Shown: positions 1,583 to 59,629, counted from the whole stretch's first letter. The stretch is DNA of 62,129 nt, filler included, from 9 parts of 9 records of this genome joined end to end with filler, not necessarily neighbours in it; one strand, 5' to 3'. Notes: generated by a model from the sequence alone, not told the origin. Translations and numbers: made by a program.

Positions 1583-4500
1583 CTACATCATGTCGTATTC
1601 ATACGGGTTTTGAGTTCCCGGCGGGTCAACATGGGTCATCAGCTCTCCACCATCCCAACCTGTGCGGTTGGCCGACTTGTTCCACCAACGCTCCCAGTTA
1701 GCAAAGTCAAGCTCCTCGTTGCCTCCAGTGATCTTGAGCCAGGTCTGCTGTACTTTCTTCTTGAAGTACACGTTGACAGTATGGAGCTCCCACGGCCGTT
1801 GCTCCTTCCAGACCTCAGCCAGGTACTTCCGGAAATCCTTGAAGGAGCACGTGTCATTCAGGTCAGCATATCTCTGCATGATTGCGTAATGGTATCGGAC
1901 TGGAAGAGTCTCTCGCTGGGCCCGCTCCGTTGGAGTGAGCTCGACTTTGTCGGCCTTTTTGCTCTCTGTCTTCTTGATGGGCACCATTGTCTTTAGGGCG
2001 ATCTCCTCTTGGTCGAGCACTTCTTTCTCACCGAGGCGCCTTCGGATTTTGTTTGTCAGCGTCTCCTTGTGCATCACGACAAGCGCCACCTCTCGGCCTG
2101 GTGGGCAGCCAGGCATTTTGGTAGCATCCCAGGTGGTTTGCATCACGCGACGAGTGTTCCTCATCATATTGATTCTAAGGACCCTGCTGTCACCCACCTG
2201 CCAGATTACACTCACTTCAACTGCCACCAAGGTTTGGCAGCTCACCTCAAAGTCTTCATCATAGAGGATCTCACTGAGGGCGTCGAGTGCCTCCACATTC
2301 GAGTCCTGATCGACAAACTTGATGAGTGCCTTTCCGATGAGGTCATTCCGCGAGTATCCCAGGGCTCGGGCTGCAGCTGGGGTGCAGTCAAGTACGTACC
2401 CGTCATTGTCCATAGAGAAAGCAGCCAGGAAGCCGCTAAGCCCAACGATGGTTCCCTTCGGATTAGCTCGATCGTCGTACCTGCCACAATGCATACACTC
2501 AGCATCCCAACCAGATGTGCTTCCGCACCATGGGGCAATCGACAATTTGACCATACTGGACACTTGACCCGCATTTCGTATCTTGGCGTCGAAGATCATG
2601 GGCTGGCAAGTCTCAAACACCTCCTTGTTGAATTTCAGGAATTCGCCGCGGCAGGTTGCGTCTAGTAGCTCCACAAAGTTTGCTTCCTAAGCAAGCACAC
2701 TCTGCTCAATACTTGAAGGGGCTCAGTCACACCTGGACATCGGCGTAGTTCAATTCCAATTGGTGTAGCACTGCATCGGTCGCTTCTTGAATAGTGCTCA
2801 GGGTGTCTAGACCAAAGACAGGACCATGAAGGTTACGAAGTTTCTTACACCCATATTCGTCCATTTCTTCGAAGAGTTGGTCCTCTTCCGCATCGTATAG
2901 TTCGTTGAAAGAGCTGTCGTCGTATTCCAGAGGCTGGCCCAAGTGCGAGAAGACATGCTGAGCAGTGTCAGCCTCAAGCTTCTGAAGTGACACTTCCACA
3001 GCCTCAAACACGACTCCAGCAGTATCGCCATTCTTGTCGTAGTGAGCATACATCTGGAGCTTCACGAGAAGATCGTAAGACGCGCCTTCCAATTCAAAGT
3101 CGAAATCAGTCGAGCACAATGTGATCTGCTTGTCCAATGTCTTGGGGTTGCCAGTCTTGATGATAGACTCGAACTTGCTGACAATCTCATTACGATCGTG
3201 CCAATCGACATAGCGCTACACACACAACCGTCAAGGGCTCTCGCGCCACAAATTAGGCAAACCGTGTAGTGCCGCCCTGCGTGATCGTAGGCCACATTTG
3301 AGTCATCTTGGTCAAACCCATCGGAGGTGAGCTTATCGCATGCCTCGCAGTTCATATCAATGATCCGTCCCTTCAAATCAGTGGCAAAGATGATCGACCC
3401 CGATGCATCAATCAGAACACCTGACTTCATTGGATTTTCTTCACCAGCAGCATACAGGAGCATGTTGTAGTAGCCTGGTTCGGTATTGCTCATGCCCTGG
3501 TACAACGAAGAGAGGCTGGCGTGGTATTCGCGCTCGCCACCTCCCAAGGTTACGTCGTGCATGATTCGGGTCTCCTCACCCGTGTAAAGGTTTTTCAGAT
3601 GCGCCCTGAGTTGAGCTTCGCTTGACTCTGGCTCAGCACTCTTGAAACCAAAGCAGTTTCGGGCCCTCTCGGCAACGCGTTGATCTTGTGACTCGTCAGC
3701 TGCATCTAGGAATAAAGAACCATAGGTGATTTGGCATATGTCAGCTGCCTTAGTGTTGGCATATTTGACTTGATCAGGCTCTAGCCACCTGCAATACACA
3801 ACGCTTAGATTCAGACAGCTGGGCCTAGCTATAGGGTCTTACTCGATGAAGTCCAGGCTGCCTCTGACCAGCTTCGGGGTCCTCCGCGTCACCAGCACTG
3901 GGCCATTCTTCACGAGCTCCCAGATCGGTCTGGCAACCAGCGTGCACACTAGCACAGGCATAGGTTTGCCATTGTACATCTGCTCTGGATCAATCTTTAT
4001 CTGCACAAGCACACGCAGATCGCGCCCATCCCTTGACTTCATCTCCATAGGGAATGGATCCATTGTTAGCTCTTGACCCGTATCACGTGACTCCCTGGCC
4101 AAATCAGCTGCATATGCAATTCTGTCCGTGAATAAGGGATCCGTGTCGTATAGGAAGTCCTCAAATGGTTGGCCTACCACCCCCCGGAACTTGTTGTGGC
4201 CAAGCGTCCCCACAGCATTGATGTTTGCATCAATTACTGTAAAGGCATCATACGGCTGTCCAGCAGCTGTTTCCTCCTGGATATCTGGGCAGAGCTGGAA
4301 TATCATGGTCTTGTTGTTGGCATCTATGATGTAGCTGTCCTGAATCTGCGCTACCACCTGCATCTCTTCGTCTACTCGGAATACTGGCGTGATGCCTACG
4401 ACCATGTGTTCGCGGTTTGTGTCGTCTGCAAGCTGGATTTCGAAGAGTTGCATCGTGTCAATCAGCCCGCTCCTGAGCACTCGTTCCACTTCACACTTAA

Positions 4501-7500
4501 ATTCGTCAGTCGAGTCGAAGGCCTCTCCTTGGAGCAGCTTCATCACGTCATTGACCCGTGTCCTTCGCGCTCTCCGTTTTCCAGCTTTGATCGGGCCAGA
4601 AATGTCATCTCCCTCCAAGACCACACCGTCAACGTCTTCAATCCACTCAGGGTACTCGATTTTACCGTCTTTCAAATTCTTCTCGATTGCAATCATGACT
4701 CTGTTTCTGGAATCTACTGTTAATGGCTCCAGTAGTGTCGGAAAGTCCTGGAGATCGCAAGTGTTGAGATTGATTTCATTGCCAAGTGTCTTTGCCATCT
4801 CCAGGTCAAACGGGTCAACATTCAGTATCGCAGAGCGGATCCTCCGGTCAAGCTCATATGCACCAGGTTGCGCCATCATGTCTCTAGATTCGCACACAAT
4901 GAAGTCGTTCACCACGTTCCTGCGCCTCGGCTTTCCCCTGCTCCGACCCGCCTTATCCAAGCCTGATTCATCATCGCCCGACCGTTCAATATTGTTTTTT
5001 GTATCTTCAGGCAACGCATTCAGTGCACCATCAAAATCTCCCTGCTCGTTGAGATTGCTGATCACATTGTGCACAGTCTCCAGTGATTCGGGAGTAAGCA
5101 TACACGCAAGGTCTGAAAGTGGAATATCGTTGTTGAAGAATTCCTTGCTGCTTCTTACCTTGCTATCAGCGCGCTCTACCTCATAAGCCTTGACCTCGAA
5201 CGGAGGCAAGCTCATCAACACCGTGCGAACATTCCTGTCAAGCTCATGAGCACCAGGTTGCTCCATGACATTTTTTGCATCGAGAACAAGGAGATCGTTT
5301 ACGACATTCCTGTGCCTCGGCTTTCCCCTGCTCCGCCCTGCCTTGTCCAAGCCATCCACATCGTCGGCCAGCCGTTCAATGTTGTTTTTTGTATCTTCAG
5401 GCACAGCGTCCAGCATACCATCAAAGTCACCTTTCTCGTTAAGGTTGTTGACTACATTGTGAACAGTCTCGAGAGTTTTTGGCGTGAGCATTACCATCAT
5501 ATCTGATAGCGGGACATCTTTATCAAAGAACTCATTGCTTGGCTTGCTCCTCTTCTTCCGAGGCCTGCGGCTCCGGCCAACACGACTAGTTGTGTCGTCA
5601 TCCCCTGCAATAATTTCATCGTTTGTCTTGAAAGCAAGGTTCAGATCAGGGATAACTTCACCCCTGTCAGCTTTATTGAGAGCATCATCCAAAAGTTTGC
5701 GGCTCTCTGGGGTAAGTTGGTCCTTGAGTCTATCAAAAGGTGCGTCCTGTCGATATTTGTCGCTGCAGGGCTGCGACATGTCAACAAGTCTGTCGTCAGC
5801 AACCTGCCAAGTGTCGAAAGGAGAGAACATGACAACGCTATGAGCTTTGCCAGCAATGAAATTGTCGCCGTTCCACTTCTCGAGGTCCATTTCTACCTCC
5901 GGAAGCTCTTTGAGGATCTCGTCGTCTTCTTCCTTCTCTTCAGGCGGCGGGAGAAGTGTATGAGGGAAGATGATGGGGGCAGTGCCCTGGAGAAGTGTCG
6001 AGGCGCCGTGCGTCGATGCAACAACGCCAGAACTTAATCCAGTTCCGGCACCCGCTGCGGAGGCGGCAGTTGTGTTTGTGTCTGCACTGTCGTGCACAAC
6101 AACAGCAGTTGCGTCTGTAAGGTCGAGCGTTTGCTCTGTCCTAGCTTGATACATCCTCCTGCGACAGCCGAGGACATCGAGGTCAATCCTCGTCCCCTCG
6201 GGACTTGCACTGCAGAGCGAACATTGGCAGCCAAAGCATTGGCAGTATGTGTTGCCACAAGGAAAGCCCGCCTCCTCTGGGAGTATCGCATTCCAATAGA
6301 AGTACTTCTCACTAAGGCCGTTTCCTGCAGGATCGTATTCAGGCAGGTCTGCATTCCAGCAGGTCCATCGATCTCTATTGAATGTTCGGAAGAGCTTAGG
6401 TGACATACACCAGATCAATAGCAAGAACCACAAGAAGACCAAAAAATCGAACAGAACCACACCGGTATCATACAGCACGATCCACTCAAGGTTGTCACGC
6501 TGCTCTCGGAACATAGACTCAGGATCGCCTTCAGTGCATTGGCCTGTGATGACATCATCGTAGTAGTTGTACTCGTCGGTAGCTTTACCCCAAATCAAAA
6601 AGGAGTAGAACGTCAGGAATCCTGCCACAAGGATGCATGCCATGCGAGTGACGTGCACCACTGGCGGCGAGTAGCATAACGAGCCACCCAGCTTATAGTA
6701 TTGGTAGATTTCCAGCATGATACCTCCACAGAGCAATACAGACAAGACAAACACATGGATGATAACTGATTCCTCCTGGCTTGCAGGTTCTTCTCTTGCA
6801 TCTTTGTTGCGGCGTTCGTATACTGTGTTCTTGTTTCCTGCCGGACAGTCTGGCGTCCATTTGGCTTCCCTTTCATATAGGAGGTAGTAGACTCCATTAG
6901 CTTCTCCCGCATAAGATTCAGCGACATCACATGAAGTCTGTGCAGCACTAGCGCATAAGCTGTCACCTGTGGCACATGCTGCTGAGCCCGGGTCAACTGT
7001 AGGAGCATGTGTTGTAGGCGCGCTGGTCGGGTAGGCAGATGGTCCTGTGGTCGGAGGTGGAGTGGTGGGAACAGCAGTAGGTGCCCATGTTGGTGAATCT
7101 GTTGGAGGGACAACTGTTGGAGCATCGGACGGTGCATGCGACACCACTGTGGGCGCAAAGCTGGTTGGCACCAGGGTCGGTACACCAGTAGGTGTTGTTG
7201 TCGGAGCCCAGGTTGGCCCCTGGGTAGGTGGCGGAGTGGTAGGTGTCCCTGTGGGATATTCTGATGGTGTAGCCGTAGGCGAAAACGACGTCGGTACATT
7301 AGTAGGATGGGCCGAAGTGGGGCGCCAAGTTGGCAGGGCTGTCGGCATGTTTGTTGGCCATGGTCCGATACAAGCAGTTTGAAATGTGTAATTGAATGCC
7401 AATCCACCATATGAGTTGCCAGCTGTGTCGCGGACCGCATCTGCAGCTAGGAACATGGTGTACGACGTGCATGGAGTCACGCAAGGCGTGTCCGGACCCC

Positions 7501-10500
7501 CTGCTGGCGTTGGAGCAGTGGACCCACCCCCGGAATTGGGTTGCGAGCACGTCGGCACTTGAATAGTCATGACCTTGCCGGAATAACCCACCTCGGCAGC
7601 ATTGGTGGTATCGCGAAAGAATGACTTGAGCAGTGGCATGGCCGTATACCCAGCAACACCTGTGAATCCGTCGTCGTTGGCATTACCCGGATCCACTCTA
7701 TATGTAACACCGTTTACATAGTTGACAACAGAATTGTCCTGCTGGGGGTCGTACATTGTTATACTCGTGTCCGTAGTGTCGGCTGGAGCTGTTGCAGTCC
7801 CAGGATTGGTGGTAGCTGAAAACCCAGGACCAGTACCCGAATAGACTGCACCTGTGTTGATATTTCCCGTGCACCCAGATTGGCTGAAGCTGATTGGCTC
7901 GTTTAACTGAAAGTTCGGCTCAGAGTCAACGGTGTTGAGGGTAGTCGGGCCATTGCTCCTCCCATCAAGTATGCCGGTGCCCACTAAAGTCGTCGGCTGT
8001 ACTCCGATGGTGGCTCCTCGCAAGATTGTAAACTTGGCGCCAGAAACTTGCCCGATGATAATGTCTCGTAATACAGGATTACAGCCTCCGTTGGTTGTAT
8101 ATTGGATTGTCTTCAGGTTCCCAGCAATCTGGGTTCCAGTTAACAGGAGGTCCGCGCCGGTGACTGTCATGGTACAATAGTCGATCACCCCGTTGCTGTT
8201 CACTGCTGGGTAGGACATAATTGTGGCCGACACACCCGTTGGATAATTCGCTTGAGCGTTGTTGGTAGTGGTTATCCTCATGCCGGCATACCACATGTTT
8301 GTTGTTGGTGCAGTGGCCGAGCAGGCACCGCCGTCAGGGTTCTCTGACAGTGCGATCGTCTGCACTGTCTGTGACAATGTTAGGCAAGGAGCCACGGTTG
8401 TGCTGTCGGTTGTGCACGACCCAGCAATCACATCCTCGTTGAAAGTGAGCTGGATTTGATCCAAAGCCTCGTAGTTCACCACGGCGTTCCCGTTCAAGGG
8501 TGAATATCTCGTGATCCATGGTGCTTGCTCGTCTGCCATCGTGAAATAGTAGTTGTTCTCTGACAGTCCGGCGAATCTGTTGTCATTCAAATCCTTTACC
8601 ACGTCTGTGAGCGCAATGCTATAGGTCTTCAAGGATTGCAGCACGGTCTCAAACTGAATGAACACTTCGTATTGGATCGGATTCCCATTCTCGGGATTCG
8701 CGGGATTCACGCAGGTTGAAATCACAAGGCCGTTCTCGTCTGGATTGGTACAACTGCGGGCACCGATTGACGTGTACCCTGAGACGCGGCTGCTCTCAAG
8801 AGTGGTGCTCTCCAGGAAAGCCCAGGTGTAGCCCCCGCCAGTGGCTGCTGTACCCAGGTACAAGGATACTTGTGAGCCCGCAACCAAAGACATCACATTC
8901 TGATCATAGAATGTGATTTTCGAGGTGTATGGTCTCTCTATGGCTACGCCAGTTGCTTGGTGGGCTGGGTCCTTTGCGATGATCACTGGTGGGTTCCCAT
9001 CAATCACATTGAAGTAGTACGATCCACTGCAGAAGTGGCCAGAGTGGACTCCCTCGAACAGGTCGTTGCCAGAGTTGTCGACTACAGCATCTGCAGGGAA
9101 GTTCAAAGAATATCGATTGCCCCCCTTTAGAGGCCCTCCCAAGTCATCGTTTGTAAGAACCAGAGTGAGGGAATCTGAAGCCATTCTACTGTGCAGCTGC
9201 ACAGGTCTGTTGCCGTTGTTGTCAGACGTGTCAAGAATGCAATTGCCGCCGTGACACAGGTATGAATAGAAAACGACCCACTTGCCGACTACTGCACTGA
9301 TAGGCTCGTTGAAAGTCAAGGTGCACCCGCTGTTGGTGGGCACAAGCGCCCTCTTCAGCGGATCATATGCAGTGATATAAGGAGCAGCGTCATCCTTGGT
9401 AGTGAACTGGTAGGTCGGCCCTGCATCCGTCCCAGAGATAGTTGCCATCAGAGCAGAGGGTTGACTCGAGCATTCCGCCGAGCCGCACCACTTGTTACCA
9501 AACGCCTCTGCCTCCACCAGCACCGTGTATTGGGTCTTGACAATTGTGGCAAAATCTGTGTCCAGGTCGAACGTGACACTGGTTTCATCGGGGTTGATGG
9601 TTGTAGTGCACCCAGGAGGGGATGGTGTTCCACTTGGATAGCAGTTGATGACTGTTTGACCCTGTGACGTGTCTGTTGGGGTGAAGCTGACGAGCTTGCC
9701 AGTCGTTCCCATTTGAATCTCCGTGTTGAAGTACAGGGTGACTGTGTCATCCGCGAGCACACCCACAGCATCTTGAATAGGGTCATACTCAATGACGTAC
9801 GGTTGAACATAAGAGAGCACGCTGAAAGTATATGTTGTACCAGACAAGCCAGCGAATGTATTCGATGCCAGGTCTTGAACACAGTCGACTGGTATTTCCA
9901 CCTTGTACTCGGTACCAGCAGTAAGCCACTGAGATGTAGTGGTCGGGGGGCTGAGAGTGACCGTCCGGCCGTCGGTACTCGAATATGTGACCTGAGTCGA
10001 TTGCACATCCCTGGTGTCCGGGAGGTATACGCTTGCTCCAGCACCTGCAGTCACAGAAGTGATGGACCAAATGCACTCTGCTCCTGCAGCAGAGTTCTTC
10101 TGAACAGCCTCATTGAACGTCATGATAATCGATGCGTCTTGCTGCACGCCTACAGCGCCTTGACTTGGATTGTAGGTTGTGATGACGGGGGGTGTGATGT
10201 CGTCAGATTGGAACACTGTGAAATTCGTGCAACACTCGAGGCATGTAACTTTCACCCACTGGACGCAGTTTTGATTCGCAGTGCATGACGGTGTCCATGT
10301 GTGTGTACCAGTGAATGTATTAGTGAAAGTTGTTGGTTGCTGCAGATTGGTCGATTGCGCACTAATGCCCCCAGTGTTAGCGGAATTGTCAAAGAAGGAC
10401 GTCACAGAGCCAGAAGTTGTAGACACAGTAATTGTGCGTGACCCGGTGCCAGAGACGGCAGTGAACATGTAGGCGGCACCGCCATCCACGGCACAACATT

Positions 10501-12387
10501 CGGTCGATACATCTGAATTGTCTTGTACCGGAGCCGAAACTTCACAAACCGAATCAGTGAGACTCGTCACAAAGGTATTGGCTATAAGTGCACTGAATTG
10601 ACCAGAGGTAAATGCATACGTGGAGTCGGGGTCTGAGGCCAGACCATTGATTTGGCTTGCATCATAACCTGAGATTCCAAGAGCATACACCAGAGTTCCA
10701 GCTTGTTTGGCTACGGTGGCATAAGTGCTTGTTGCGGCCTCAGTTCCACAATAAGAGGTCGACGATGGCACGTTCCAATTTTGAAAGTCAGTCGCATAGC
10801 CATCGGTGAGAAGGATGATGACCTTTGAGACTCCGCTGGCAGGATCACGTGCAGAGCTTCCAGAAGAGAAATCGAAGAGATCTTCGTATGCAAGGCGCAT
10901 TGCCTCGCCTGTGTACGTCAAGGATGATGGAAAGTGTGAAGATTGGATGGCTTGATTCATAGTTGTTGCATCTGTGTAGTCTCCCATGTGAAACTGCCAG
11001 TACGTCTCATAAGGCCGGTTTGAGTTGGCGTATCCATTGTTTCTTCGACGAATTCCCCTGCGCCGCCGCCTGCTCCCGTATTGTAGCGTATAGGAGAAGA
11101 CCAGGAAGCCAACCTGCAGGGTCCCAAACATATTAGAGTTGCAGCAAACAGTGATATGGCAGTCACCTGGATGTTGTCTGGTCCAATAGTAGGAAACTGA
11201 CCCACACACAGGGTCGCAAAGTCCAAGCAAGTTTGGAAGTTTCTTGCCCTCACAGATCCGGATCCATCAATTACAAACAAGAGGTCGATTTTGGCTATGC
11301 ACGTATCTCCGCAGCTGGTGCTCGCACCGCACTCTTCACAGCACCGCTGGCACCGCAGCCGCAGTGGATTATTACCGCCTTCATTCAAACACCGCGGGCA
11401 AAAGGAGTCGGCACAATTGCCATTGGTCTTGCAGTTGCTCCACTCGCTCTCACAATCACCCGAGTTAGAGTTGCCGCAGGTGAGCGCAGAAGTTGATAGG
11501 AGCTTTCGTTGGACAAAACTCGCCGCCGTGAAGGTTTCATTGCCAAGACGTGCAATTGGCTCTTTCACCAGTGAGACCACGCCACTGCGCGAACTGTAAC
11601 TCGGCCGCAAATGTGGTGGCAAGGTATCATCTACATGGTCTGGAGCAGGTGGTGTCACTTGGCAGACTGTGCCATCCGCATCAGTTTTCCACGCGCTATA
11701 CTTGGGCTTCTTGATCACACCTCCAGTGTCAAGGTCTTCGACGCTTCCATCTATGCATTCAGCCATGTCAACCCAATCGTCTGGGGGCGCGTCATCATCG
11801 TCAAGTTCGTTCTCGATAGATTCAAGCCGCCTTGATGCGTCTGAGCGACGCCCTGTCAGGGTTGTAGTTTGAGAGCCACACGCATCAGACTGATTAACCG
11901 CGTTACTCAATGCTGTACTCTCTTCAACTCCACCTAGAGTAAACCATTCGGTTGACGCAGTGCACGAAGTTGTTGTGTAGGAAATTGTGGGAACCCCTGC
12001 AGTTGAGACATAGCTCGATCCAGCATACTCCACCATGTTTTGTCCGTCTGTGCACTTTCCACCCAAGGCCAGCGAGAGGGCCCCTGCTGGTCGAGCTAGA
12101 GCTACATCAGCTTCCTCCGGTTGATTGTATGCCAAGATGATCTGGTCATTTGCATCCACAGTAGCCGAACTGACTGCCGTTTCTTTGGGATACTGTGTCT
12201 GGTAGTTTTGCGAGTAGTTGCCCATACCTACAACGAAGAGCATCTGGCGAACTGGGCAGGCCGCGTTGTCTGCCTGGCACATGGCGTTGTCGTTGTAGCT
12301 TCCAATGCCGCATCTCTTGTATCCTGACGGGCAATTATCCGATGTGGTTGTCAGCATTGGACGCTCAGTATAACCACCCTCGTGCCA
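1583..12387 (-). CDS. Giant 3-TM surface receptor (5'-partial, ~3500 aa): Cys-rich/ShK-like, vWA, five Big_5-like Ig repeats, PT stalk, 3 TM, multiple PAS domains, EF-hand-like C-terminus
   Basis: Five ORFs join in frame through GT-AG introns 11114-11166, 3789-3842, 3216-3262 and 2687-2732. vWA MIDAS (IDGSGS...TGEA...LLTDG) is split by the first intron. D-x-x-P-x-I-x3-P...TFNE Ig-like repeats. PAS signatures such as MDNDGYVLDCTPAAARALGYSRNDLIGK. Frame is open to the contig edge. Confidence 0.85.
7000..7370 (-). repeat. Coding (A/S)PT-xx mucin-like tandem repeat forming the receptor stalk
   Basis: PTNMPTALPTWRPTSAHPTNVPTSFSPTATP... repeated 4-5 aa units just before the TM region. Confidence 0.85.
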
Positions 12388-12487
12388 NNNNNNNNNNNNN
12401 NNNNNNNNNNNNNNNNNNNNNNNNNNNNNNNTTAATTAATTAANNNNNNNNNNNNNNNNNNNNNNNNNNNNNNNNNNNNNNNNNNNN
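12388..12487. other. Artificial contig linker
   Basis: 44 N + TTAATTAATTAA (stops in all six frames) + 44 N. Confidence 0.97.
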
Positions 12488-19106: not shown

Positions 19107-19206
19107 NNNNNNNNNNNNNNNNNNNNNNNNNNNNNNNNNNNNNNNNNNNNTTAATTAATTAANNNNNNNNNNNNNNNNNNNNNNNNNNNNNNNNNNNNNN
19201 NNNNNN
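19107..19206. other. Artificial contig linker
   Basis: Same 100-nt N/TTAATTAATTAA/N linker. Confidence 0.97.
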
Positions 19207-19272: not shown

Positions 19273-21804
19273 TCATATTGATAATTTTGCGGTTCCATTG
19301 GCGCCTATTGTGATTAGCTTTTGGACCAGCCGCCGGCTCGGCTCGGGTTCAATCAAACTCAGCTCGACCGCCTCCCCCGCCGCTCCGACGATCTCAAGCT
19401 CCAGCCCCGGGCCGTCGAGGGCGTCGCACACCGGCGTCACACTCTTGAACCGTTGCGCCGATACCGAGATGAACTTGCCGAGCTCACCCAAGAGCCGCCA
19501 GCCTCTGCCTGCACAAGTATCGGGCGCGGTGCGCCAAAGCGTGTAATTGACCGCGGCTGCATCAAGCGCCAGGCGAAGAGGCGACGCCTGGTCGAAACGA
19601 ATCCAACTGACTGGCGGCCCAAACGGCTGGCCGGCCCTCCGCTCCCACGCGACCCCTGTCTCCACTAGCTGTCGGTTGGACAGCAGGTCAGCCGACGATA
19701 CCACATATGCACGCGTGAGGTTGCAACCGAGCACGTACCTCCACCGGAGCCCGTCTATTGTTGTGAGTGTGTGCGTCACTTCGCCGACAGGCCCGCCCTC
19801 GCCAAAGGTGCGCTGAAACCAGACGGGATCTATCGCGAGCGCGGGTCTGTCCGGCTTCAGGAGCAGCCCATCCTCACGGCACACCCTCCGGACCAGCGCC
19901 GCGTCGATGCTCCCGATCCCATCGCCCGGCGCTATCGGGCCGGCAGTGAGCGCCGACACGAGCACCTGCAGCTCGGGCAGCCCTTCTTGGAGCCCCCACC
20001 ACTCCGGTTTGGTGTTGGCAGCCCCACTCGACGGCCCGGTGCTCGAAGGCACAAAGCAAGTGGTGTTTTGCCAGGCCTGCGGCCCCGAGAAGAAGGCGTC
20101 TTTGTACGGCCGTATCCCAACAGCCCAAGGATAGAGACTGTTGGCGCCGAGGAGCAGGTTGGCGAGATGTGTCAGCTTGTGGTCCGAAGGCTTGTTCGTG
20201 CACGTGTCTGGCCGCCTCTTGATCCCAGGGATGTAGTCGGCGCTCACTCGCGCGTGGTTAGCGTTGGGGAGCTGGACAGAATGCAGGAACGCACTCGAGA
20301 TATGGCCGCCGTACTGCTTGGCGATGCCGTATCGGTCCGCTGCCGTCGCCATGTTGGTGAGCCATCGCTCAGTCACACCGAGCTGGGTGAGAGTGTAATT
20401 CATGTCCGGCATCTGCGACTGCATGTGATCGAGCTTGTACACGGCGAGCCCCAGATCGGCCATCCATCTAAATAGCGCGTCCCAGAATGCAGGCTCTACA
20501 GAGAGGCTGGCTGCTGGTTCGACCACCCATCCCCAGCTAGCATTCGACGCATACGGTGGCGGCCCTGAACGGGAGCGGCGGCCGACCCATTCACCCATGT
20601 GCATGACCAGCGGCACACCCACAGCTGCTGAGAACGCTTTGAGTCCGTTAGGGAACATATGCGGCGCCCGGGCAACCGTGTCGTCCCATCGGTAGGTGCC
20701 ACCATAGCCGGGCTCTGTGCCGCCATCAGGCAGTGGCGTCTCGCCCTCACCATACCACCACGAATCCACAAGTACGTACGCCAGCTTGAGCCCTTGCTTT
20801 GCGGCCTCACTGAACACCGCCTTCAGGGAGTCCTCCGCATTCTTACCTTTATCGAGGCCGTAGAAGTAGTGCCCCACGGTACTGTAGCCCAGCCGCTCGA
20901 TCTGAATATTGGCGGTTGGGCTTGAACGAAGCTTGCGGTGCTTGCGAAGCAGCAGCTCGCCCCAGCCAAGCATCGTGTCTGTAGGCCCGGCCGCACCAGG
21001 CTCGCCGGCGTGCAGCACCACCTCGGTCTCAAACCCTGCATGCACTCGCTCGACAGTACCTGGCACGCCGCAACGGAGCTCAGGTTCCGACGAGCCGCCA
21101 GCTATTCCAAACACACTGTCAAAGAACGACACAGTCGGTGAGAGCACTGCAGCGGCCCCAGTGGTTTGGTCCAGCAGCATCAGCGGCACGCCGTCCTCTT
21201 CGAGGTCGTATTGCTTGTAGCCTGCTGGAAAGCGGCCTCGGCCTGTATTAGGGACCCCGATTTCACCATAGCTCACGTAGCCCAGGCCATCAACGCTCCC
21301 CAACCGGGCTTTGCCTGATGCATCAAACGCCGGAAATCCGGAACCAGGAACACCCCACAAGCGGCTGGTTGGTGCCAGCCCCGCGGCAGCAGCCAGTGAG
21401 AAGCCCTCCACGTCGGTGTTGAAGCGCTGACTGAAAGTAACGGTGCGACCGCAAGTGTAGGCCGCAAAGGTCGTTGTCCAGTTGAGGGTGGGCTGGCAGT
21501 CGCTCGGTTCAGTGGCTGTCCAATCGATCGCCAGAGCTCGATACCCACCGAGGCTGTCCCACCCTGAGAACTGCCGGCGGTCTGTAGTCCGGAGGCCCTG
21601 GTGGCTTGACAGAAGCCTGCCGTTGCATGTGATGACCAGTGGTGAAGAGACGAGCCATCGGTCGCCATGGACGCTCACCCAGAAATCACCTGTGCTAGGG
21701 TCGACGCCGAGCGCAAGCGGCGTGGTCGAGTTCCCGGCCCGCCAGTCAGTGCTGCCCTGGATCAAATGCCATGAGATGAGGAGCAACAACACCGGATTTC
21801 GCAT
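19273..21804 (-). CDS. Secreted putative glycoside hydrolase (TIM-barrel, GH36/raffinose-synthase-like, unclassified family)
   Basis: Signal peptide MRNPVLLLLISWHLIQGS, YVLVDSWWY, FPNGLKAF, YKLD, RVSADY, LTAGPIAPGDGIG...CREDGLLLKPDRP. Confidence 0.65.
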   Translation of the reverse strand: MRNPVLLLLISWHLIQGSTDWRAGNSTTPLALGVDPSTGDFWVSVHGDRWLVSSPLVITCNGRLLSSHQGLRTTDRRQFSGWDSLGGYRALAIDWTATEPSDCQPTLNWTTTFAAYTCGRTVTFSQRFNTDVEGFSLAAAAGLAPTSRLWGVPGSGFPAFDASGKARLGSVDGLGYVSYGEIGVPNTGRGRFPAGYKQYDLEEDGVPLMLLDQTTGAAAVLSPTVSFFDSVFGIAGGSSEPELRCGVPGTVERVHAGFETEVVLHAGEPGAAGPTDTMLGWGELLLRKHRKLRSSPTANIQIERLGYSTVGHYFYGLDKGKNAEDSLKAVFSEAAKQGLKLAYVLVDSWWYGEGETPLPDGGTEPGYGGTYRWDDTVARAPHMFPNGLKAFSAAVGVPLVMHMGEWVGRRSRSGPPPYASNASWGWVVEPAASLSVEPAFWDALFRWMADLGLAVYKLDHMQSQMPDMNYTLTQLGVTERWLTNMATAADRYGIAKQYGGHISSAFLHSVQLPNANHARVSADYIPGIKRRPDTCTNKPSDHKLTHLANLLLGANSLYPWAVGIRPYKDAFFSGPQAWQNTTCFVPSSTGPSSGAANTKPEWWGLQEGLPELQVLVSALTAGPIAPGDGIGSIDAALVRRVCREDGLLLKPDRPALAIDPVWFQRTFGEGGPVGEVTHTLTTIDGLRWRYVLGCNLTRAYVVSSADLLSNRQLVETGVAWERRAGQPFGPPVSWIRFDQASPLRLALDAAAVNYTLWRTAPDTCAGRGWRLLGELGKFISVSAQRFKSVTPVCDALDGPGLELEIVGAAGEAVELSLIEPEPSRRLVQKLITIGANGTAKLSI

Positions 21805-21955
21805 GCCGGCTTTGGGCATAGGATTCCCTCGCGACCAGGGCAGCTCCGAGGGTTTGCGCTGGTCGACTCCGGGCCGCACTGCCAGATCAAGTCCGTTGCA
21901 ATTCCGTTATCACTGGATCAGCGTGCAGGGCGGTGCTGTATCGGGTAGTCCGAGG

Positions 21956-23632
21956 ATGGCTGGCAGCCCCATAGCGCTCCTGGGGCTGTTGGCACAGCTG
22001 GTCACGGCGGCACAGGTCTCGCTTACTCTGCAGGGCACCGAGCCAGTGTCCAGCACCGACGCCCGGTACCGTTGCTTCAACATCGACACCAGCTCCAACC
22101 GGCAGTTCTTCGAGATCGACTTCGCCCAGCCCCGGCTGCGCTATCTGGCGGCTGCACTCGGGCCCGGCGGCTACCTCCGGGTCGGTGGCACCGGGAATGA
22201 TCACCTTACATACCAATTTGGGGGGACCCCGTGCGACAGATCGGGTGGGGGGGCTTGCGGCAAGCACGCGGTTGGCAACTGCTGCTTAAATCAGAGCCAG
22301 TGGGATGCGCTGTGCGGCCTTGCCGCTGCTGCGGAGGTCCCGATGGTGTTTGGGCTGAACTTGATGCAGCGCCAGAATGCCTCTGGCAGTGATCGTGCCG
22401 GCCACTGGGACCCAGCGAATGCGAGGCAGCTTTTGGAATATTCAATCGAGACCGGCTGCAGGATCTATGGGCTTGAACTGGGTAACGAGGAGCAGGACAA
22501 GCTCGGGAGCACGATAGAGGCCAGCGCCAGGCGGCTTGCACAGGACTATTTGGTGCTACAAGCGCTGCTCGAAGAACTCTATCCAGTGCAATCCAGCAGG
22601 CCACGGCTGTATGGCCCAGATCCGACCAGCCTCGGGAACCCGGGTGGCTGCCAGATCCCGTCATCGACCCATCTCATTGCTTGTGTGGCTTCAGGTTATC
22701 CTGGCGACCCGCTAGACCGCTACGATGCTCCTATCCTGAGCTTCCTCACTCTCTTCACTGCGGCTGCCAAGGAATTGGGGGTAGATTTAGCGGGTATCAC
22801 GTATCACGAGGTGCTGCTAGTCTTGCTCTTATATGTGGGGCTAACTGGACGGCTTCACAGTATATTGAAGCTAATATCTCGACCTCTAGACAGGCCAACA
22901 AGCTGGACACAACAGCAGTCATCGCGAAGAGCGTTGTTGCTGCAGTTCGAGCTGTCGACCCCTCTCTTGATCTCTGGGCTGGAGAGATCGGGCCACACAA
23001 TGGTGGCGACCCGCCATGCTCCAGCGTCAGCGAGCGCTACAGCACTTTTGCTGACGTGTTCTGGTACGCCGATGCGCTCGGTATCGCTCCTGCAACTATG
23101 GCGATCTCATTTTTGCATTGCAGGAGCTAAAGCGCTGCATGGGCATCAAGTCTTCTGTCGGCAAGACTTAGTAGGCGCTGATTATGGCATGCTCGACTGT
23201 GCGACGCATCTGCCCAATCCTGACTACTACATTGGGCTGCTTTGGAGTCGGACCATGGGCAGGAGAATTCTCAACCTAACGTCTTCAGACACTGGCAGGG
23301 TTCGGTCGTATGCAGCGTGTGCAGCTCGAGGGATCACAGTGCTGCTTATCAACTTGCGGCCCGAGTATGCGAGCGTGGAATTGCCGATGCTCCTTCATGC
23401 CTCGCGCCATGAAGATTACGTGCTCACAGGCCATCTAGAGAGTCAAGGAGTCAAACTGAATAACGTCACGTTGTTATTCATGGGAGACAGGCTACCTCCC
23501 ATGCCTCCAGTGGACAGCAAGGCTGGTGCTATGTTCACCCTTCCCGGCGAGTCGGTGGCCTTTGTTTCGTTTCCTGAAGCGCATCTCCCCGGTTGCGCAG
23601 AAAGAGAAGTTGAGTTAACGATTCGGCCCTAA
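21956..23632 (+). CDS. GH79 heparanase-like beta-glucuronidase
   Basis: Signal peptide, LRVGGT, LELGNE (acid/base), LWAGEIG (nucleophile, restored by introns 22811-22860 and 23081-23123), CRQDLVGADYG and PNPDYY. Confidence 0.9.
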   Translation: MAGSPIALLGLLAQLVTAAQVSLTLQGTEPVSSTDARYRCFNIDTSSNRQFFEIDFAQPRLRYLAAALGPGGYLRVGGTGNDHLTYQFGGTPCDRSGGGACGKHAVGNCCLNQSQWDALCGLAAAAEVPMVFGLNLMQRQNASGSDRAGHWDPANARQLLEYSIETGCRIYGLELGNEEQDKLGSTIEASARRLAQDYLVLQALLEELYPVQSSRPRLYGPDPTSLGNPGGCQIPSSTHLIACVASGYPGDPLDRYDAPILSFLTLFTAAAKELGVDLAGITYHEVLLVLLLYVGLTGRLHSILKLISRPLDRPTSWTQQQSSRRALLLQFELSTPLLISGLERSGHTMVATRHAPASASATALLLTCSGTPMRSVSLLQLWRSHFCIAGAKALHGHQVFCRQDLVGADYGMLDCATHLPNPDYYIGLLWSRTMGRRILNLTSSDTGRVRSYAACAARGITVLLINLRPEYASVELPMLLHASRHEDYVLTGHLESQGVKLNNVTLLFMGDRLPPMPPVDSKAGAMFTLPGESVAFVSFPEAHLPGCAEREVELTIRP

Positions 23633-26025: not shown

Positions 26026-26125
26026 NNNNNNNNNNNNNNNNNNNNNNNNNNNNNNNNNNNNNNNNNNNNTTAATTAATTAANNNNNNNNNNNNNNNNNNN
26101 NNNNNNNNNNNNNNNNNNNNNNNNN
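26026..26125. other. Artificial contig linker
   Basis: Same 100-nt linker. Confidence 0.97.
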
Positions 26126-29457: not shown

Positions 29458-29557
29458 NNNNNNNNNNNNNNNNNNNNNNNNNNNNNNNNNNNNNNNNNNN
29501 NTTAATTAATTAANNNNNNNNNNNNNNNNNNNNNNNNNNNNNNNNNNNNNNNNNNNN
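29458..29557. other. Artificial contig linker
   Basis: Same 100-nt linker. Confidence 0.97.
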
Positions 29558-30704: not shown

Positions 30705-30827
30705 GTCCACGAGCTGTCGGGGAAGCGACAGGTGTAGCACGTTCTGCCCGCCGAGGTGCTGTCTTGAGCTCAATGAGCTGTCTTGAGCTGGCGGGCAGTC
30801 CCGCGGGAACTGCTCGGGGGGGGGGGA

Positions 30828-33695
30828 ATGGTGATGCGATGTGTCCTACTCGCCCTCGTATGGCTGGCGCTCATATCTGGCTCGGCTGGCACAACCGCTG
30901 AAGGACTCTCCAGGATACTGGCTGATCTTAGCGTGGCTGAGAAGGCCCGGCAGCTCGACATCTTCCGGGCAGCTGATATGCTCACGAACGGCCAGGTGAA
31001 TATGAGCAAGGCTGCGTTAAGCTGGGGCAATCTGAGCCTTGGGGTCGGGATACTGCATGACGTGTACCCATACCCGTCGCTATCGAATCAGATCATGCAG
31101 GCGCTCACACAGGCGAGCAGATCCAAGATACCGCCTCTGATAGGTGGCGAGGCCACCCACGGGCTCCAGATGGACGATCATACTATCTTCCCATCGCCCA
31201 TATCGCTCGCGGCTACATGGGACGTGGAGCTGATGAGAGCCTACGGTGGTGTGGTGGGGTCGGAGGCCCGTGCATGCGGCACACACGTCACATGGGCTCC
31301 AGTGCTCGGCTTGTGTCGTGAGCCGCGATGGGGACGGTGCGAGGAAATGATGGGTGAAGACCCGCACCTAGCCGCAGAGCTAGGCCGTGCAGCGATTAAC
31401 GGACTCACTAACGACCAGAATTTCAGCTCGCCGGCTGCAGTTGCACCGCTGATGAAGCACTATGCTGCATACTCGGTGCCGGAGGGAGGCCATAACACAG
31501 CGCCGGCCCACATCGGCAGGAGGGAGCTGCTCTCCACGTTCGTGCCGCCGTTTGCCGCCGGGATGGACGCTGGTGCGCAGGCGATGATGGTGAGTTACAA
31601 TGAAATCGACGGGGTGCCCAACTCGCACTCAAGCTACCTGCTCTCGACTCTGCCGAGGGGGGGCGCTGAGCAACGGGGCTCTGGGCCTGTCGAGCCTTGG
31701 GACGGGTTCATTTCGTCCGACTTCGGCGCGATTCACAACCTTCTGTCAGCCCACAATGTGGCCCAGTCAGCAGCGGATGCGATCGTGCAGTATCTCGAAG
31801 CGGGTGGCTCAGTCCAGGGTTTCGATTTTGACCATGTGACCTGGCAAGAGAGCATTATCAACTCAGTTGCGAATGGTACGCTCTCCGAAGCCGCGCTGGA
31901 CAAGGCTGTGATGAGGGTACTCACAGTCAAACAGAGGCTTGGGCTGCTCGAGCAGCCATACATACAAGACCCGTCGCGATACCACCAGCTGATCACATCC
32001 GCTGATCATGAGCAGGTAGCTCTGACCGCGGCCCGCAAGGCGATGGTGTTGCTGCAGAATGAACCCGACAAGGCGTTGGGCTCTGACTCTGCAGTGCTGC
32101 CACTCGACCCGACCAAGATCAGATCGATCGGACTGATAGGACCGAATGCAGATCAGCCGCAGTGTGGAGACTACGCTGCTGGTGGTTCGTGGGGTGCGGA
32201 TAAGTGCGGAGGCGGACCTATCAATAATCAGCGTACGTCGAGTGTGATTGGAGCTATTAAGCAGCTGTTCCCGAAGCTTGAGCTCACATACGCACCGGGT
32301 GCACCGATCGCTGATTATAACGCGTCGGCGCCGTATTACACAACCATCCAGAGCCACTCGTATAGCACTGCTGCTGGCGATCAAGGAATCATTGGCACAT
32401 ATTTTGAGGGCGCCAATATGAGTAGCTCAGCTGCTGTACTGCGCAGGAACGACTTTCTGATCTCGTTCCACTTGCTCAATTATGGACCAGGGCAGAGTGA
32501 GCCGAATCCTGCAGTGCTGCCTACCAGTGGGTTCTCGGCCTACTGGGAAGGGTTTATTACTCCGGATGCCACTGTGAACGCCACTTTCCAGGTCGTATCA
32601 CGAGGTGCAAGCCAAACAATGAAGCTGTGGCTCGATGGTGTACCCATCACTCTGGCCAACAGCAACCGCCAGCAGCCGGGTGTGGTTCAGTTGCACAGGG
32701 GCGTCAAGATTTCGATTAGGTTCGAGTACTCACAGCCTGATAACACCGGGCAGCATCCAGGTTTCGCTTTACAGTGGAATCTGCAGGGAAGCTCGCCTGT
32801 GCAGGATGCAGTGGGGGCCGTCAAGAATACGGATGCTACAGTGGTAGTGGTAGGAGGTGGCACTAGCACAACTAGCGGCGAGGGTATCGACAGGGCCTCG
32901 TTGGAACTTCCGGGCACACAGCTTGCATTGCTGCAGCAAGTGCGAGCAATTGCAGTGGCGGCTAAGAAGCCGATGGCAGTGGTGGTGGTCCAGGGCAAGC
33001 CATTCGGGGAGCAATGGATGAAGCAGTCACTGCCTGCAATCATTGAGGCATGGCAGAGCGGTCAGGCTCAAGGCAAGGCGATTGCTGAGACACTCTTTGG
33101 CATCAACAACCCTGCAGGCAGAACCCCAATCAGCTTTGCCGTGTCGGCTGACCATCTGCCTGTCTTCTATAATCACAAACCGACTGCATCACGCGGAGGC
33201 TATAATCACCCCCCACTTATACCTGGAGGCCTTTATCCCCCGACTGCACCTTCGTCTGCCTCGCTCCTGTGGGCGTTTGGGCACGGTCTCTCCTATGGCG
33301 CCAGATTCGAATACCATTCGTTGAAAATGGATGGCGGAACTAATGTGACCAAGACCACGCTCAACGGCAAAATAGCGGTGACGTTTGAGGTTACGAATGT
33401 AGGGAGTTCCGGAGCCGAGGAGGTGGTGCAGCTGTACGTCCGAGATGAACTTGCATCGGTCACCACACCAGTAATGCAGCTCCGTGACTTTCGGCGGTTG
33501 CCAATGATCGCATCTGGTGCTAGCGTCAGTGTTGCGCTCGAAATAGATGTGGTGCAGGATTTGTGGCTTATTGATCAGAGCTACACGAAGCGTGTTGAGC
33601 CGGGCAATTTCAATGTGATGATTGGAGGTGCAAGTGATAAGATTCAATTGACAGGCCTAGTTGAAGTGGTGGACAGCCACAAAGAAGAGCTTTGA
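30828..33695 (+). CDS. Secreted GH3 beta-glucosidase/xylosidase with PA14 insert and FnIII-like C-terminus
   Basis: Signal peptide, EATHG, FPSPISLAATWD, REPRWGRCEE..GEDP, MKHY, ISSDF nucleophile, PA14 (FSAYWEGFI), SGEGIDR, AFGHGLSY and EEVVQLYVRD. Confidence 0.93.
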   Translation: MVMRCVLLALVWLALISGSAGTTAEGLSRILADLSVAEKARQLDIFRAADMLTNGQVNMSKAALSWGNLSLGVGILHDVYPYPSLSNQIMQALTQASRSKIPPLIGGEATHGLQMDDHTIFPSPISLAATWDVELMRAYGGVVGSEARACGTHVTWAPVLGLCREPRWGRCEEMMGEDPHLAAELGRAAINGLTNDQNFSSPAAVAPLMKHYAAYSVPEGGHNTAPAHIGRRELLSTFVPPFAAGMDAGAQAMMVSYNEIDGVPNSHSSYLLSTLPRGGAEQRGSGPVEPWDGFISSDFGAIHNLLSAHNVAQSAADAIVQYLEAGGSVQGFDFDHVTWQESIINSVANGTLSEAALDKAVMRVLTVKQRLGLLEQPYIQDPSRYHQLITSADHEQVALTAARKAMVLLQNEPDKALGSDSAVLPLDPTKIRSIGLIGPNADQPQCGDYAAGGSWGADKCGGGPINNQRTSSVIGAIKQLFPKLELTYAPGAPIADYNASAPYYTTIQSHSYSTAAGDQGIIGTYFEGANMSSSAAVLRRNDFLISFHLLNYGPGQSEPNPAVLPTSGFSAYWEGFITPDATVNATFQVVSRGASQTMKLWLDGVPITLANSNRQQPGVVQLHRGVKISIRFEYSQPDNTGQHPGFALQWNLQGSSPVQDAVGAVKNTDATVVVVGGGTSTTSGEGIDRASLELPGTQLALLQQVRAIAVAAKKPMAVVVVQGKPFGEQWMKQSLPAIIEAWQSGQAQGKAIAETLFGINNPAGRTPISFAVSADHLPVFYNHKPTASRGGYNHPPLIPGGLYPPTAPSSASLLWAFGHGLSYGARFEYHSLKMDGGTNVTKTTLNGKIAVTFEVTNVGSSGAEEVVQLYVRDELASVTTPVMQLRDFRRLPMIASGASVSVALEIDVVQDLWLIDQSYTKRVEPGNFNVMIGGASDKIQLTGLVEVVDSHKEEL

Positions 33696-37674: not shown

Positions 37675-37774
37675 NNNNNNNNNNNNNNNNNNNNNNNNNN
37701 NNNNNNNNNNNNNNNNNNTTAATTAATTAANNNNNNNNNNNNNNNNNNNNNNNNNNNNNNNNNNNNNNNNNNNN
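37675..37774. other. Artificial contig linker
   Basis: Same 100-nt linker. Confidence 0.97.
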
Positions 37775-43515: not shown

Positions 43516-43615
43516 NNNNNNNNNNNNNNNNNNNNNNNNNNNNNNNNNNNNNNNNNNNNTTAATTAATTAANNNNNNNNNNNNNNNNNNNNNNNNNNNNN
43601 NNNNNNNNNNNNNNN
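43516..43615. other. Artificial contig linker
   Basis: Same 100-nt linker. Confidence 0.97.
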
Positions 43616-48971: not shown

Positions 48972-49071
48972 NNNNNNNNNNNNNNNNNNNNNNNNNNNNN
49001 NNNNNNNNNNNNNNNTTAATTAATTAANNNNNNNNNNNNNNNNNNNNNNNNNNNNNNNNNNNNNNNNNNNN
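48972..49071. other. Artificial contig linker
   Basis: Same 100-nt linker. Confidence 0.97.
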
Positions 49072-56975: not shown

Positions 56976-57075
56976 NNNNNNNNNNNNNNNNNNNNNNNNN
57001 NNNNNNNNNNNNNNNNNNNTTAATTAATTAANNNNNNNNNNNNNNNNNNNNNNNNNNNNNNNNNNNNNNNNNNNN
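56976..57075. other. Artificial contig linker
   Basis: Same 100-nt linker. Confidence 0.97.
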
Positions 57076-59538: not shown

Positions 59539-59629
59539 GCCGCACACCCGTCCGGTCGACCACACGCCGGGCGGGTTGGTGATCAAGAAAAAAAAATAAA
59601 AGAGCAAAACTCAATGGGGGTGATGATCG

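Follow-up and report, generated by a model that had tools for sequence, protein, structure and literature searches.

The stretch of DNA analysed here (62,129 nucleotides (nt), hereafter the window) consists of nine contigs joined by eight artificial linkers of the form N44-TTAATTAATTAA-N44, and its first contig (1-12387) carries, on the minus strand at 1583-12387, a giant gene whose product combines a von Willebrand factor type A (VWA) domain, a rod of Ig-like Big_5 units, transmembrane (TM) helices and a cytoplasmic array of PAS domains. We find that 1583-12387 is one real, expressed gene, a nuclear gene of a marine eukaryote that encodes a giant multi-pass surface glycoprotein. Its upper limit at 12387 is the end of the contig, where an N-run and linker begin at 12388; because there is no start codon and the frame stays open up to the contig end, the gene is 5'-truncated at 12387.

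One expressed gene with six short introns

Five minus-strand open reading frames (ORFs) make up the gene (10957-12387, 3839-11266, 3062-3838, 2727-3215 and 1583-2686), and removal of four GT..AG introns of 53, 54, 47 and 46 nt joins them into a single open frame of 3534 amino acids (aa). A preliminary description of the window had already proposed that these ORFs form one gene with four introns. The joining is confirmed by a frame that is open after splicing, by joints in RNA contigs and by a colinear environmental protein, P0001; the four introns are kept, but two in-frame introns of 48 nt had been overlooked, which brings the total to six. Both lie in the last ORF, where two 16-residue stretches have no counterpart in P0001, each of them bounded by GT..AG, 48 nt long, in-frame and free of stops. 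With all six introns removed (lengths 46-54 nt) the spliced product of the window part is 3502 aa. The two in-frame, stop-free introns, hidden in an open frame and revealed only by RNA or homologues, carry a lesson for annotation.

Our search of public sequencing runs listed 24 runs, of which 20 contain part of the stretch (shares 0.14-0.32), and 19 of these 20 are RNA, from marine or seawater metatranscriptomes of 11 studies. Transcription in seawater samples of about 11 studies implies that the host organism is widespread. RNA contigs were examined from four runs (X1, X2, X4 and X5), belonging to four studies, and they contain spliced joints for five of the six introns; intron 3 has a joint in none of the four. 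The homologues P0001 and P0003 are continuous at all six sites.

Exon 1 (11167-12387), which is 5'-truncated, encodes the Cys-containing ectodomain and the start of the VWA domain including DGSGS, and is colinear with residues 531-891 of P0001. Intron 1 (11114-11166; 53 nt, GT..AG, phase 0) falls within the VWA domain, is spliced in one run (X4) and is matched by continuous sequence in P0001. Exon 2 (3843-11113; 7271 nt) encodes the rest of the VWA domain, the Big_5 rod, a Pro/Thr-rich stalk and three TM helices, and it continues through the helical repeats and PAS A into the beginning of PAS B. No joint was seen within exon 2 in the RNA-covered parts, and comparison with P0001, a check that is not exhaustive, revealed no GT..AG-bounded insertion in it.

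Intron 2 (3789-3842; 54 nt, phase 2), located early in PAS B, is spliced in one run (X1, with a shorter side of 47 letters), and the long ORF is terminated by a stop codon at 3839-3841 that lies inside this intron. This junction, which spans 3789-3842, rules out that transcripts end at 3839, an outcome that the preliminary description had named as fatal to its single gene. Intron 3 (3216-3262; 47 nt, phase 0) lies within PAS C and is accepted because it has GT..AG borders and because P0001 and P0003 are continuous across the site, reading unbroken from GRHYT into RY. Intron 4 (2687-2732; 46 nt, phase 0), within PAS D, has a joint in one run (X2), which is weak at a shorter side of 28 letters, and the homologues are continuous there. 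The two in-frame, stop-free introns have more RNA joints: intron 5 (2481-2528; 48 nt, phase 2) is spliced in three runs (X1, X4 and X5) and absent from P0001 and P0003, and intron 6 (2198-2245; 48 nt, phase 0), within PAS E, is spliced in two (X1 and X5) and absent from the homologues, with the loose end of an X4 contig also fitting the spliced form. Introns 2 to 6 are thus all located within PAS units B to E, which extends the earlier claim that introns fall inside PAS units. The spliced frame ends at a stop codon at 1583-1585, and the 3' untranslated region reaches at least to about 1470, as RNA contigs run to 1470 (X5, a polyA library) and to 1520 (X1).

RNA cover is patchy, and the bins without a contig in the four runs (7848-8260 in the gene and 414-1239 in a neighbouring ORF) prove nothing. 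RNA contigs and window differ at 25 coding positions, 13 synonymous and 12 non-synonymous; the synonymous enrichment fits purifying selection, but several of the differences are close to the ends of contigs and could be erroneous. In the X2 metatranscriptome we also observed an in-frame 9-nt insertion at 9935, in the Big_5 region, which points to strain-level length variation of the ectodomain. Scans of the window for tandem repeats and for promoters and terminators found nothing.

Relatives in environmental sequence collections

A whole-length search of 5.8 billion proteins returned two matches among 7999 scored candidates. One of them, P0001 (4056 aa, from ENA), is 37% identical over 63% of the query, contains VWA, Big_5 and PAS, and is the only full-length relative; the other, P0002, is a 1424-aa Big_5 repeat protein. 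Using tblastn, we found residues 531-4053 of P0001 to be colinear with the window from 12387 down to 1592, apart from a 300-residue insert (1436-1736) between Big_5 units that has no counterpart in the window. Since P0001 aligns from residue 531 at 12387, the window lacks about 530 N-terminal residues relative to it, including a further TM helix, and these first 530 residues of P0001 match no Pfam family.

A near-length search with the last ORF gave two matches among 2735 candidates, both of them JGI fragments (P0003 and P0004), of which P0003 is 50% identical to the window protein. Our exhaustive phmmer search with P0003 against 1.84 billion representatives, a library that carries no source information, returned 58 proteins at E<=1e-3, 24 at E<=1e-10 and 13 at E<=1e-30, the query being counted. 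Roughly twenty of the 58 belong to the family, most of them as fragments, and the rest are bacterial-type multi-PAS kinases matched via a single PAS. P0021, one of the family, is 98% identical to the window protein, and all matches with a recorded source are ENA or JGI environmental proteins. Two further proteins, P0005 and P0006, contain the repeats, PAS and the tail with no TM helix; P0006 starts inside a repeat, so these are probably fragments and not soluble paralogues. No relative was confirmed in JGI metagenome contigs scanned with exon 1 and alignment A6, nor in viral contigs or 185,579 prokaryote genomes scanned with alignment A6, and no paralogue of the cytoplasmic part occurs elsewhere in the window.

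An adhesin-type ectodomain

The extracellular part comprises more than 1850 aa. It begins with a Cys-containing region (residues 1-364 of the spliced model, 21 Cys), in which about 15 Cys are clustered at residues 300-362, and this cluster falls largely within two insertions of 12 and 45 residues that are absent from P0001. There follows the VWA domain (10565-11295, minus strand), split by intron 1, which Pfam recognises in two pieces: profile positions 1-43 in the first ORF (E 2.6e-7, 31.4 bits) and 51-168 in the second (E 2.8e-15, 57.4 bits), against a curated cut-off for VWA (PF00092) of 23.8 bits. The domain of P0001 matches at E 1.3e-28 and 100.8 bits. The metal-ion-dependent adhesion site (MIDAS) is intact, with DGSGS in exon 1 and a Thr (in TYTG) and an Asp (in LTDG) that align with the corresponding positions of integrin alpha-E; we take the DxSxS, Thr and Asp residues to be those that form the site. 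By sequence, the nearest VWA domains in the PDB are those of collagen VI, the mussel thread protein PTMP1, integrin alpha-X and Toxoplasma MIC2. The domain also carries a poly-Arg insertion, RRRRRGIRRR, at about 11030-11070 (minus strand), which is kept in P0001 as RRRRVMRRR and might mark a site of convertase-type cleavage or a patch for binding.

Behind the VWA domain lie five Big_5 units (7355-10204, minus strand), as Pfam Big_5 matches five of eight ectodomain segments scanned singly, with E-values of 1.2e-14, 1e-4, 7.6e-9, 4.8e-5 and 5.2e-4 for segments 1 to 5. Segments 1, 3 and 4 (55.4, 36.7 and 24.5 bits) pass the cut-off of 23.6 bits for PF13205, and segments 2 and 5 (23.4 and 21.1 bits) fall just below it. 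The fifth unit matches the first half of the profile only; a stretch resembling the end of unit 1 lies about 250 residues further on, which suggests an unassigned insert of about 250 aa within this unit. A Pro/Thr-rich, mucin-like stalk (6965-7354, minus strand), with 52% Pro plus Thr over 130 aa, leads from the rod towards the membrane. The VWA domain with its MIDAS, the five Big_5-like repeats and the Pro/Thr stalk had all been named in the preliminary description, and each was recovered here. Together, these features support an ectodomain of the adhesin type, in which a MIDAS-bearing VWA head would be carried on an Ig-like rod and a mucin-like stalk.

Membrane part and topology

Three TM helices are found at 6406-6769 (minus strand; residues 1856-1874, 1898-1916 and 1959-1977), with hydropathy peaks of 2.48, 1.92 and 2.64, where the preliminary description had placed three at about 6410-6770. 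The first helix contains a Glu and the third an Asp, and both residues are conserved in P0001. P0001 itself has four TM helices, the three that it shares with the window and one at residues 395-413. Given the helices of P0001 and the Cys- and Pro/Thr-rich nature of the VWA/Big_5 part, we infer that the complete protein passes the membrane four times with both ends cytoplasmic, the VWA/Big_5 part forming an extracellular loop. The missing 5' part would then, by analogy with P0001, encode a cytoplasmic N-terminal region and the first TM helix.

Cytoplasmic repeats and PAS domains

The cytoplasmic part is about 1500 aa long. It starts with a juxtamembrane region (6155-6403, minus strand) that has 8 Cys in 83 aa, is conserved in P0001 and matches no Pfam family. 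This is followed by an acidic low-complexity linker and then by three to four repeats of about 125 aa (4412-5839, minus strand), which are predicted, at low confidence, to be helical. Identity is 64% between repeats R1 and R2 and about 27% between R3 and either of them, and a weaker R0 lies ahead of the three. A polybasic cluster stands at the end of each repeat (RSRRPRKKR, RSRGKPRHRN, RSRGKPRRRN and KRR), and these clusters are conserved in P0001. An AlphaFold2 model of 3842-6403, built from four sequences, has a predicted local distance difference test score (pLDDT) of 43.5 and shows the repeats as helices only, and the repeat region gave no Pfam family and no usable Atlas match.

The PAS array lies downstream of the repeats, on the same strand; a PAS fold consists of an antiparallel sheet of five strands flanked by helices. 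Three of its units are contained in P0003, for which AlphaFold2 (21-sequence alignment) gave three PAS folds at a pLDDT of 74.3 and a predicted template modelling score of 0.72. These are PAS C (2964-3436; P0003 residues 1-120; VIA Z 13.0, root-mean-square deviation (rmsd) 1.9, 100 residues aligned), which includes intron 3; PAS D (2447-2906; residues 180-277; VIA Z 11.4, rmsd 2.0, 98 aligned), which includes introns 4 and 5; and PAS E (2042-2446; residues 283-394; VIA Z 14.8, rmsd 2.5, 103 aligned), which includes intron 6. PAS E is the best-conserved unit and passes the Pfam cut-off for PAS (E 9.5e-7, 29.3 bits against 22.6), and hhalign relates PAS D to PAS C at 95% and to PAS E at 93%. In a Foldseek search with the P0003 model PpsR, which has three PAS domains, ranked first (E 1e-14), ahead of ARNT, HIF, PER and CLOCK.

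PAS A (3911-4372) has no Pfam match; its model has PAS topology at pLDDT 67-80, single PAS/LOV domains head its Foldseek matches (E about 1e-4), and hhalign against the PAS E profile gives a probability of 82%. LOV photosensors have as their hallmark a flavin-binding Cys in an NCRFLQ-type motif. That Cys is absent here, PAS A reading GQPFEDFL and PAS E GKALIKFV at the place concerned, and the LOV structure matches of PAS A reflect a shared fold only. A fifth unit, PAS B (3437-3910, with intron 2 inside the interval), is probable and the weakest of the five, with a Pfam PAS_4 match at E 5.7e-4 and 20.5 bits against a cut-off of 23.1. Four PAS folds (A, C, D and E) are therefore well supported by these comparisons and PAS B is a probable fifth, where the preliminary description had counted at least five recognisable units. 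The same description had added about four degenerate units, which it did not place; the only candidate region for them consists of the helical repeats, which carry no sign of PAS, and we do not retain them.

No kinase, cyclase, phosphodiesterase or DNA-binding family was found by Pfam or NCBIfam in the window ORFs or in P0001. More specifically, HisKA, HATPase, GGDEF, EAL, cyclase and protein kinase domains gave no match in these two libraries, residues 1978-2650 being modelled at low confidence, and the low-confidence fold of this unexplained cytoplasmic region did not resemble an enzyme domain either. These results agree with the claim that the protein has no catalytic output. Our searches for DNA-binding domains likewise gave no bHLH or other family above threshold, the only hints being HeH/SAP-like ones at E 0.009-0.095.

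A C-terminal domain of EF-hand origin

The last 120 or so residues (1586-1939, minus strand) form a conserved domain with the motifs PVxYH, RPWxLH, WxxWW, WDGG and PPG (alignment A5). The same domain also terminates an ankyrin-repeat protein (P0017), an Ion_trans protein (P0025) and PAS-PAS proteins (P0029, P0042 and P0046), and its presence in several architectures is consistent with a module that mediates protein interaction or regulation. The stretch of P0046 and P0042 that aligns with the window tail holds a canonical EF-hand recognised by Pfam; the window tail matches P0046 by BLASTP at E 0.006 and P0042 by hhalign at 87.6% (E 3.5e-6). In the structural model the tail has four main helices (pLDDT 72-93). 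Atlas gave weak leads only, with EF-hand clusters scored at 0.84, below 0.9.

A canonical EF-hand has a loop of 12 residues with acidic ligands at positions 1, 3, 5 and 12. The loop of the window tail has a four-residue gap relative to P0046 and lacks the usual acidic ligands, and Pfam EF-hand models match none of 12 tail sequences. We conclude from these alignments that the tail descends from a pair of EF-hands and has a degenerate loop, and that canonical calcium binding is unlikely, given the shortened loop, the absent ligands and the lack of any EF-hand model match. The earlier label of an EF-hand-like tail was thus right as to origin but does not extend to a canonical calcium-binding EF-hand. 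A search with the tail profile against PDB sequences returned no match at E up to 10, and the possibility that the C-terminus is a known enzyme domain was not borne out by Pfam or by PDB sequences.

Neighbouring genes and composition

The linkers (12388-12487, 19107-19206, 26026-26125, 29458-29557, 37675-37774, 43516-43615, 48972-49071 and 56976-57075) create stops in all six frames, and contig neighbourhood across them is meaningless. On the first contig the giant gene converges with a 5'-open plus-strand ORF at 1-1245 that encodes a homocysteine S-methyltransferase (PF02574, E 2.2e-33). This ORF is almost uncovered in the four RNA runs and has a guanine-plus-cytosine content (GC) of 63% and a third-position GC (GC3) of 0.75, whereas the giant gene has a GC of about 51-52% and a GC3 of 0.55. 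Relatives of this methyltransferase ORF reach 54% identity at most, the named ones being from Cymbomonas (41%), Amoebophrya (40%) and Polarella (32%), so the host has no close sequenced relative in that database. We also considered an outlier chromosome of the Mamiellales type, with low GC and tiny introns, and dropped it in view of the distant relatives of the neighbour and the continuum of GC3 over the window.

GC3 ranges from 0.53 to 0.85 among the measured ORFs, which means that composition varies gene by gene. The longest ORFs (the giant gene and an Ion_trans ORF) rank near the bottom, an unassigned 469-aa ORF at 40588-41994 is also low with a GC3 of 0.55, and the highest values belong to several short ORFs (an RsmB/F-type methyltransferase, an EF-hand ORF and an alpha-kinase). 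The Ion_trans ORF (49073-55492, plus strand) encodes 2139 aa, and its segment 53954-54415 shares 43% identity with the first part of P0025; downstream of this ORF the window shows no EF-hand-derived tail. The alpha-kinase ORF (57253-59610, minus strand; PF02816, E 1.9e-40) directly adjoins the EF-hand ORF, and the two may be exons of one gene. Two further plus-strand ORFs encode glycosidases, one a GH3 glycosidase with PA14 and Fn3-like domains (30777-33695) and the other of GH79 type (21461-23632).

Proposed function and alternatives

We propose that the giant protein is an adhesion or contact receptor whose PAS and EF-hand-like module serves as a non-catalytic scaffold, a reading that could equally well prove right or wrong. 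In such a receptor, the VWA head would bind a ligand, a surface or another cell via its metal site, and the binding, load or clustering would be relayed across the membrane by the bundle of three helices. As a scaffold without catalysis of its own, the PAS array with the tail would dimerise or recruit partners in the manner of PAS domains of the PER/ARNT type, and may in addition bind small intracellular ligands. Adhesion would in this way be coupled to the state of the cell, by outward or inward signalling. That the contact would be with prey, as the preliminary description had suggested, finds no support in the present results.

The anatomy of the protein is read directly from the gene model and its domain matches, whereas we infer the function from domain content only, which weighs against the proposal. 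Several other points tell against it as well. The first 530 or so residues are known only from P0001, which is 36-47% identical over the aligned segments, and the repeats and juxtamembrane region, modelled at the low pLDDT given above, could possibly hold a cryptic domain. PAS B is below the Pfam cut-off and reaches at most 0.5% in hhalign against the other PAS units, and no listed RNA contig bridges the site of intron 3.

Among other explanations, the protein might be mainly a mechanical adhesin or surface anchor (for a substrate, a particle, gliding or a cell covering, as with TRAP/MIC2), in which PAS would regulate adhesiveness from inside or form a link to the cytoskeleton and no outside signal would be relayed. 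A MIDAS-bearing VWA domain, an Ig-like rod and a mucin-like stalk are typical adhesin parts, the VWA domain matches those of MIC2, collagen VI and PTMP1 by sequence, and there is no enzyme output. However, a cytoplasmic region of 1500 aa with a PAS array far exceeds known adhesin tails and contains no cytoskeleton-binding family by Pfam, and we consider this explanation unlikely, even though domain content cannot separate it from the receptor proposed above. We regard as decidedly improbable a regulator of the Notch type, in which ligand or load would lead to cleavage and the released fragment would enter the nucleus via its polybasic clusters, where its PAS domains would pair with transcription factors. 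The three long polybasic clusters and the short KRR, one per repeat, are conserved in P0001, the top PAS structure matches are to transcription regulators (PpsR, ARNT/HIF/NPAS, PER and CLOCK), and P0005 and P0006 hold the repeats, PAS and tail apart from any TM helix. Yet no DNA-binding domain or cleavage motif was detected, polybasic runs beside a membrane could equally bind acidic lipids, the structure matches of PAS domains are uninformative on function, and P0005 and P0006 are probably incomplete, P0006 beginning in mid-repeat.

A role as subunit or regulator of an ion-conducting complex, with ion flux as the output, would make use of the Glu and Asp that are conserved within the TM helices of the window protein and P0001, and would be in keeping with the Ion_trans protein P0025 ending in the same tail domain. 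But ankyrin and PAS proteins terminate in this tail too, the membrane part gives no match to any channel family, and three or four helices with no pore signature do not suffice for a channel, which makes such a role very improbable. The difference in GC between the gene (about 51-52%) and the neighbouring ORF at 1-1245 (63%), which is nearly uncovered in the same RNA runs, might suggest an artefact in which two or more adjacent genes, or the parts of a chimeric contig, happen to be read as one. This explanation is close to refuted, as spliced RNA connects every part tested and runs past the stop at 3839, the 4056-aa homologue and shorter ones keep the same order of parts, and GC3 spans the same 0.53 to 0.85 across the ORFs of other contigs, with the longest among the lowest.

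Returning to the contact receptor with a non-catalytic scaffold, a bolder form of that proposal would place the protein in a class of eukaryotic contact receptors not described before, in which an integrin-like MIDAS/Ig ectodomain is combined with a membrane-tethered PAS array, the array either acting as a PER-like output or being cleaved and bound for the nucleus via its polybasic clusters. We think it quite unlikely that this form is correct. If true, the cleaved version would be a Notch-like route that uses PAS and that evolved independently in an uncultured lineage of marine protists.

Comparison with known systems

In the ocean, attachment, feeding, infection and recognition between cells are governed by the surface receptors of marine protists, which to our knowledge are almost unknown. 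Full-text searches of the literature did not find the architecture of VWA, Big_5 and PAS. The giant protein had previously been described as integrin- or TRAP-like, which is apt for its adhesin-type VWA ectodomain: TRAP/MIC2 and integrins with I-domains likewise expose a VWA domain with a complete MIDAS on a membrane-anchored stalk. Judged by its domains, however, it belongs to neither family, and the Pfam scans found no propeller, thrombospondin type-1 repeat (TSR) or other family of theirs besides VWA. In TRAP/MIC2 the VWA domain is followed by TSRs, one TM helix and a short acidic tail, whereas here Pfam finds no TSR and there are three to four TM helices. Integrins have a propeller or hybrid/PSI/EGF domains, a single TM helix and a short tail, whereas here VWA is the one integrin family that Pfam finds, there are again three to four TM helices to set against the single one, and the cytoplasmic region is about 1500 aa long. 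Bacterial Big_5 surface proteins share the rod, but in our case it belongs to a eukaryotic gene with spliceosomal introns and is accompanied by a VWA domain, a membrane bundle and PAS.

On the cytoplasmic side, the closest parallels are PER, ARNT/HIF (bHLH-PAS) and PpsR, the top structure matches, which likewise have tandem PAS domains with no attached enzyme. The PAS domains of PER, ARNT and PpsR act by protein-protein pairing. The giant protein differs from these in that no bHLH or HTH was detected, in that the array, of five units with PAS B counted, is tethered to the membrane behind a giant ectodomain, and in a sequence identity of 8-17% to those structures. Bacterial multi-PAS sensor kinases, such as P0008 with 32 PAS, HisKA, HATPase and a receiver domain, also have long PAS arrays and are matched via PAS E, but they end in a histidine kinase whereas no output domain was found here. 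Pairs of EF-hands, including calcium-insensitive ones, resemble the tail, which aligns over the EF-hands of P0046 and P0042 and is helical in the model, but the tail has motifs of its own and a loop four residues shorter than that of P0046.

The giant protein is novel as a new combination of known domains with two unnamed modules, and members of its family are known from environmental sequences alone. These two uncharacterised modules are the helical repeat of about 125 aa with its polybasic cluster and the EF-hand-derived C-terminal domain. As a receptor design, the protein would join an adhesin-type ectodomain to PAS domains, four of them supported and a fifth probable, with no enzyme found; it would resemble integrin- or TRAP-type adhesins in its outer part and PAS scaffolds of the PER/ARNT type in its inner part, while belonging to neither.

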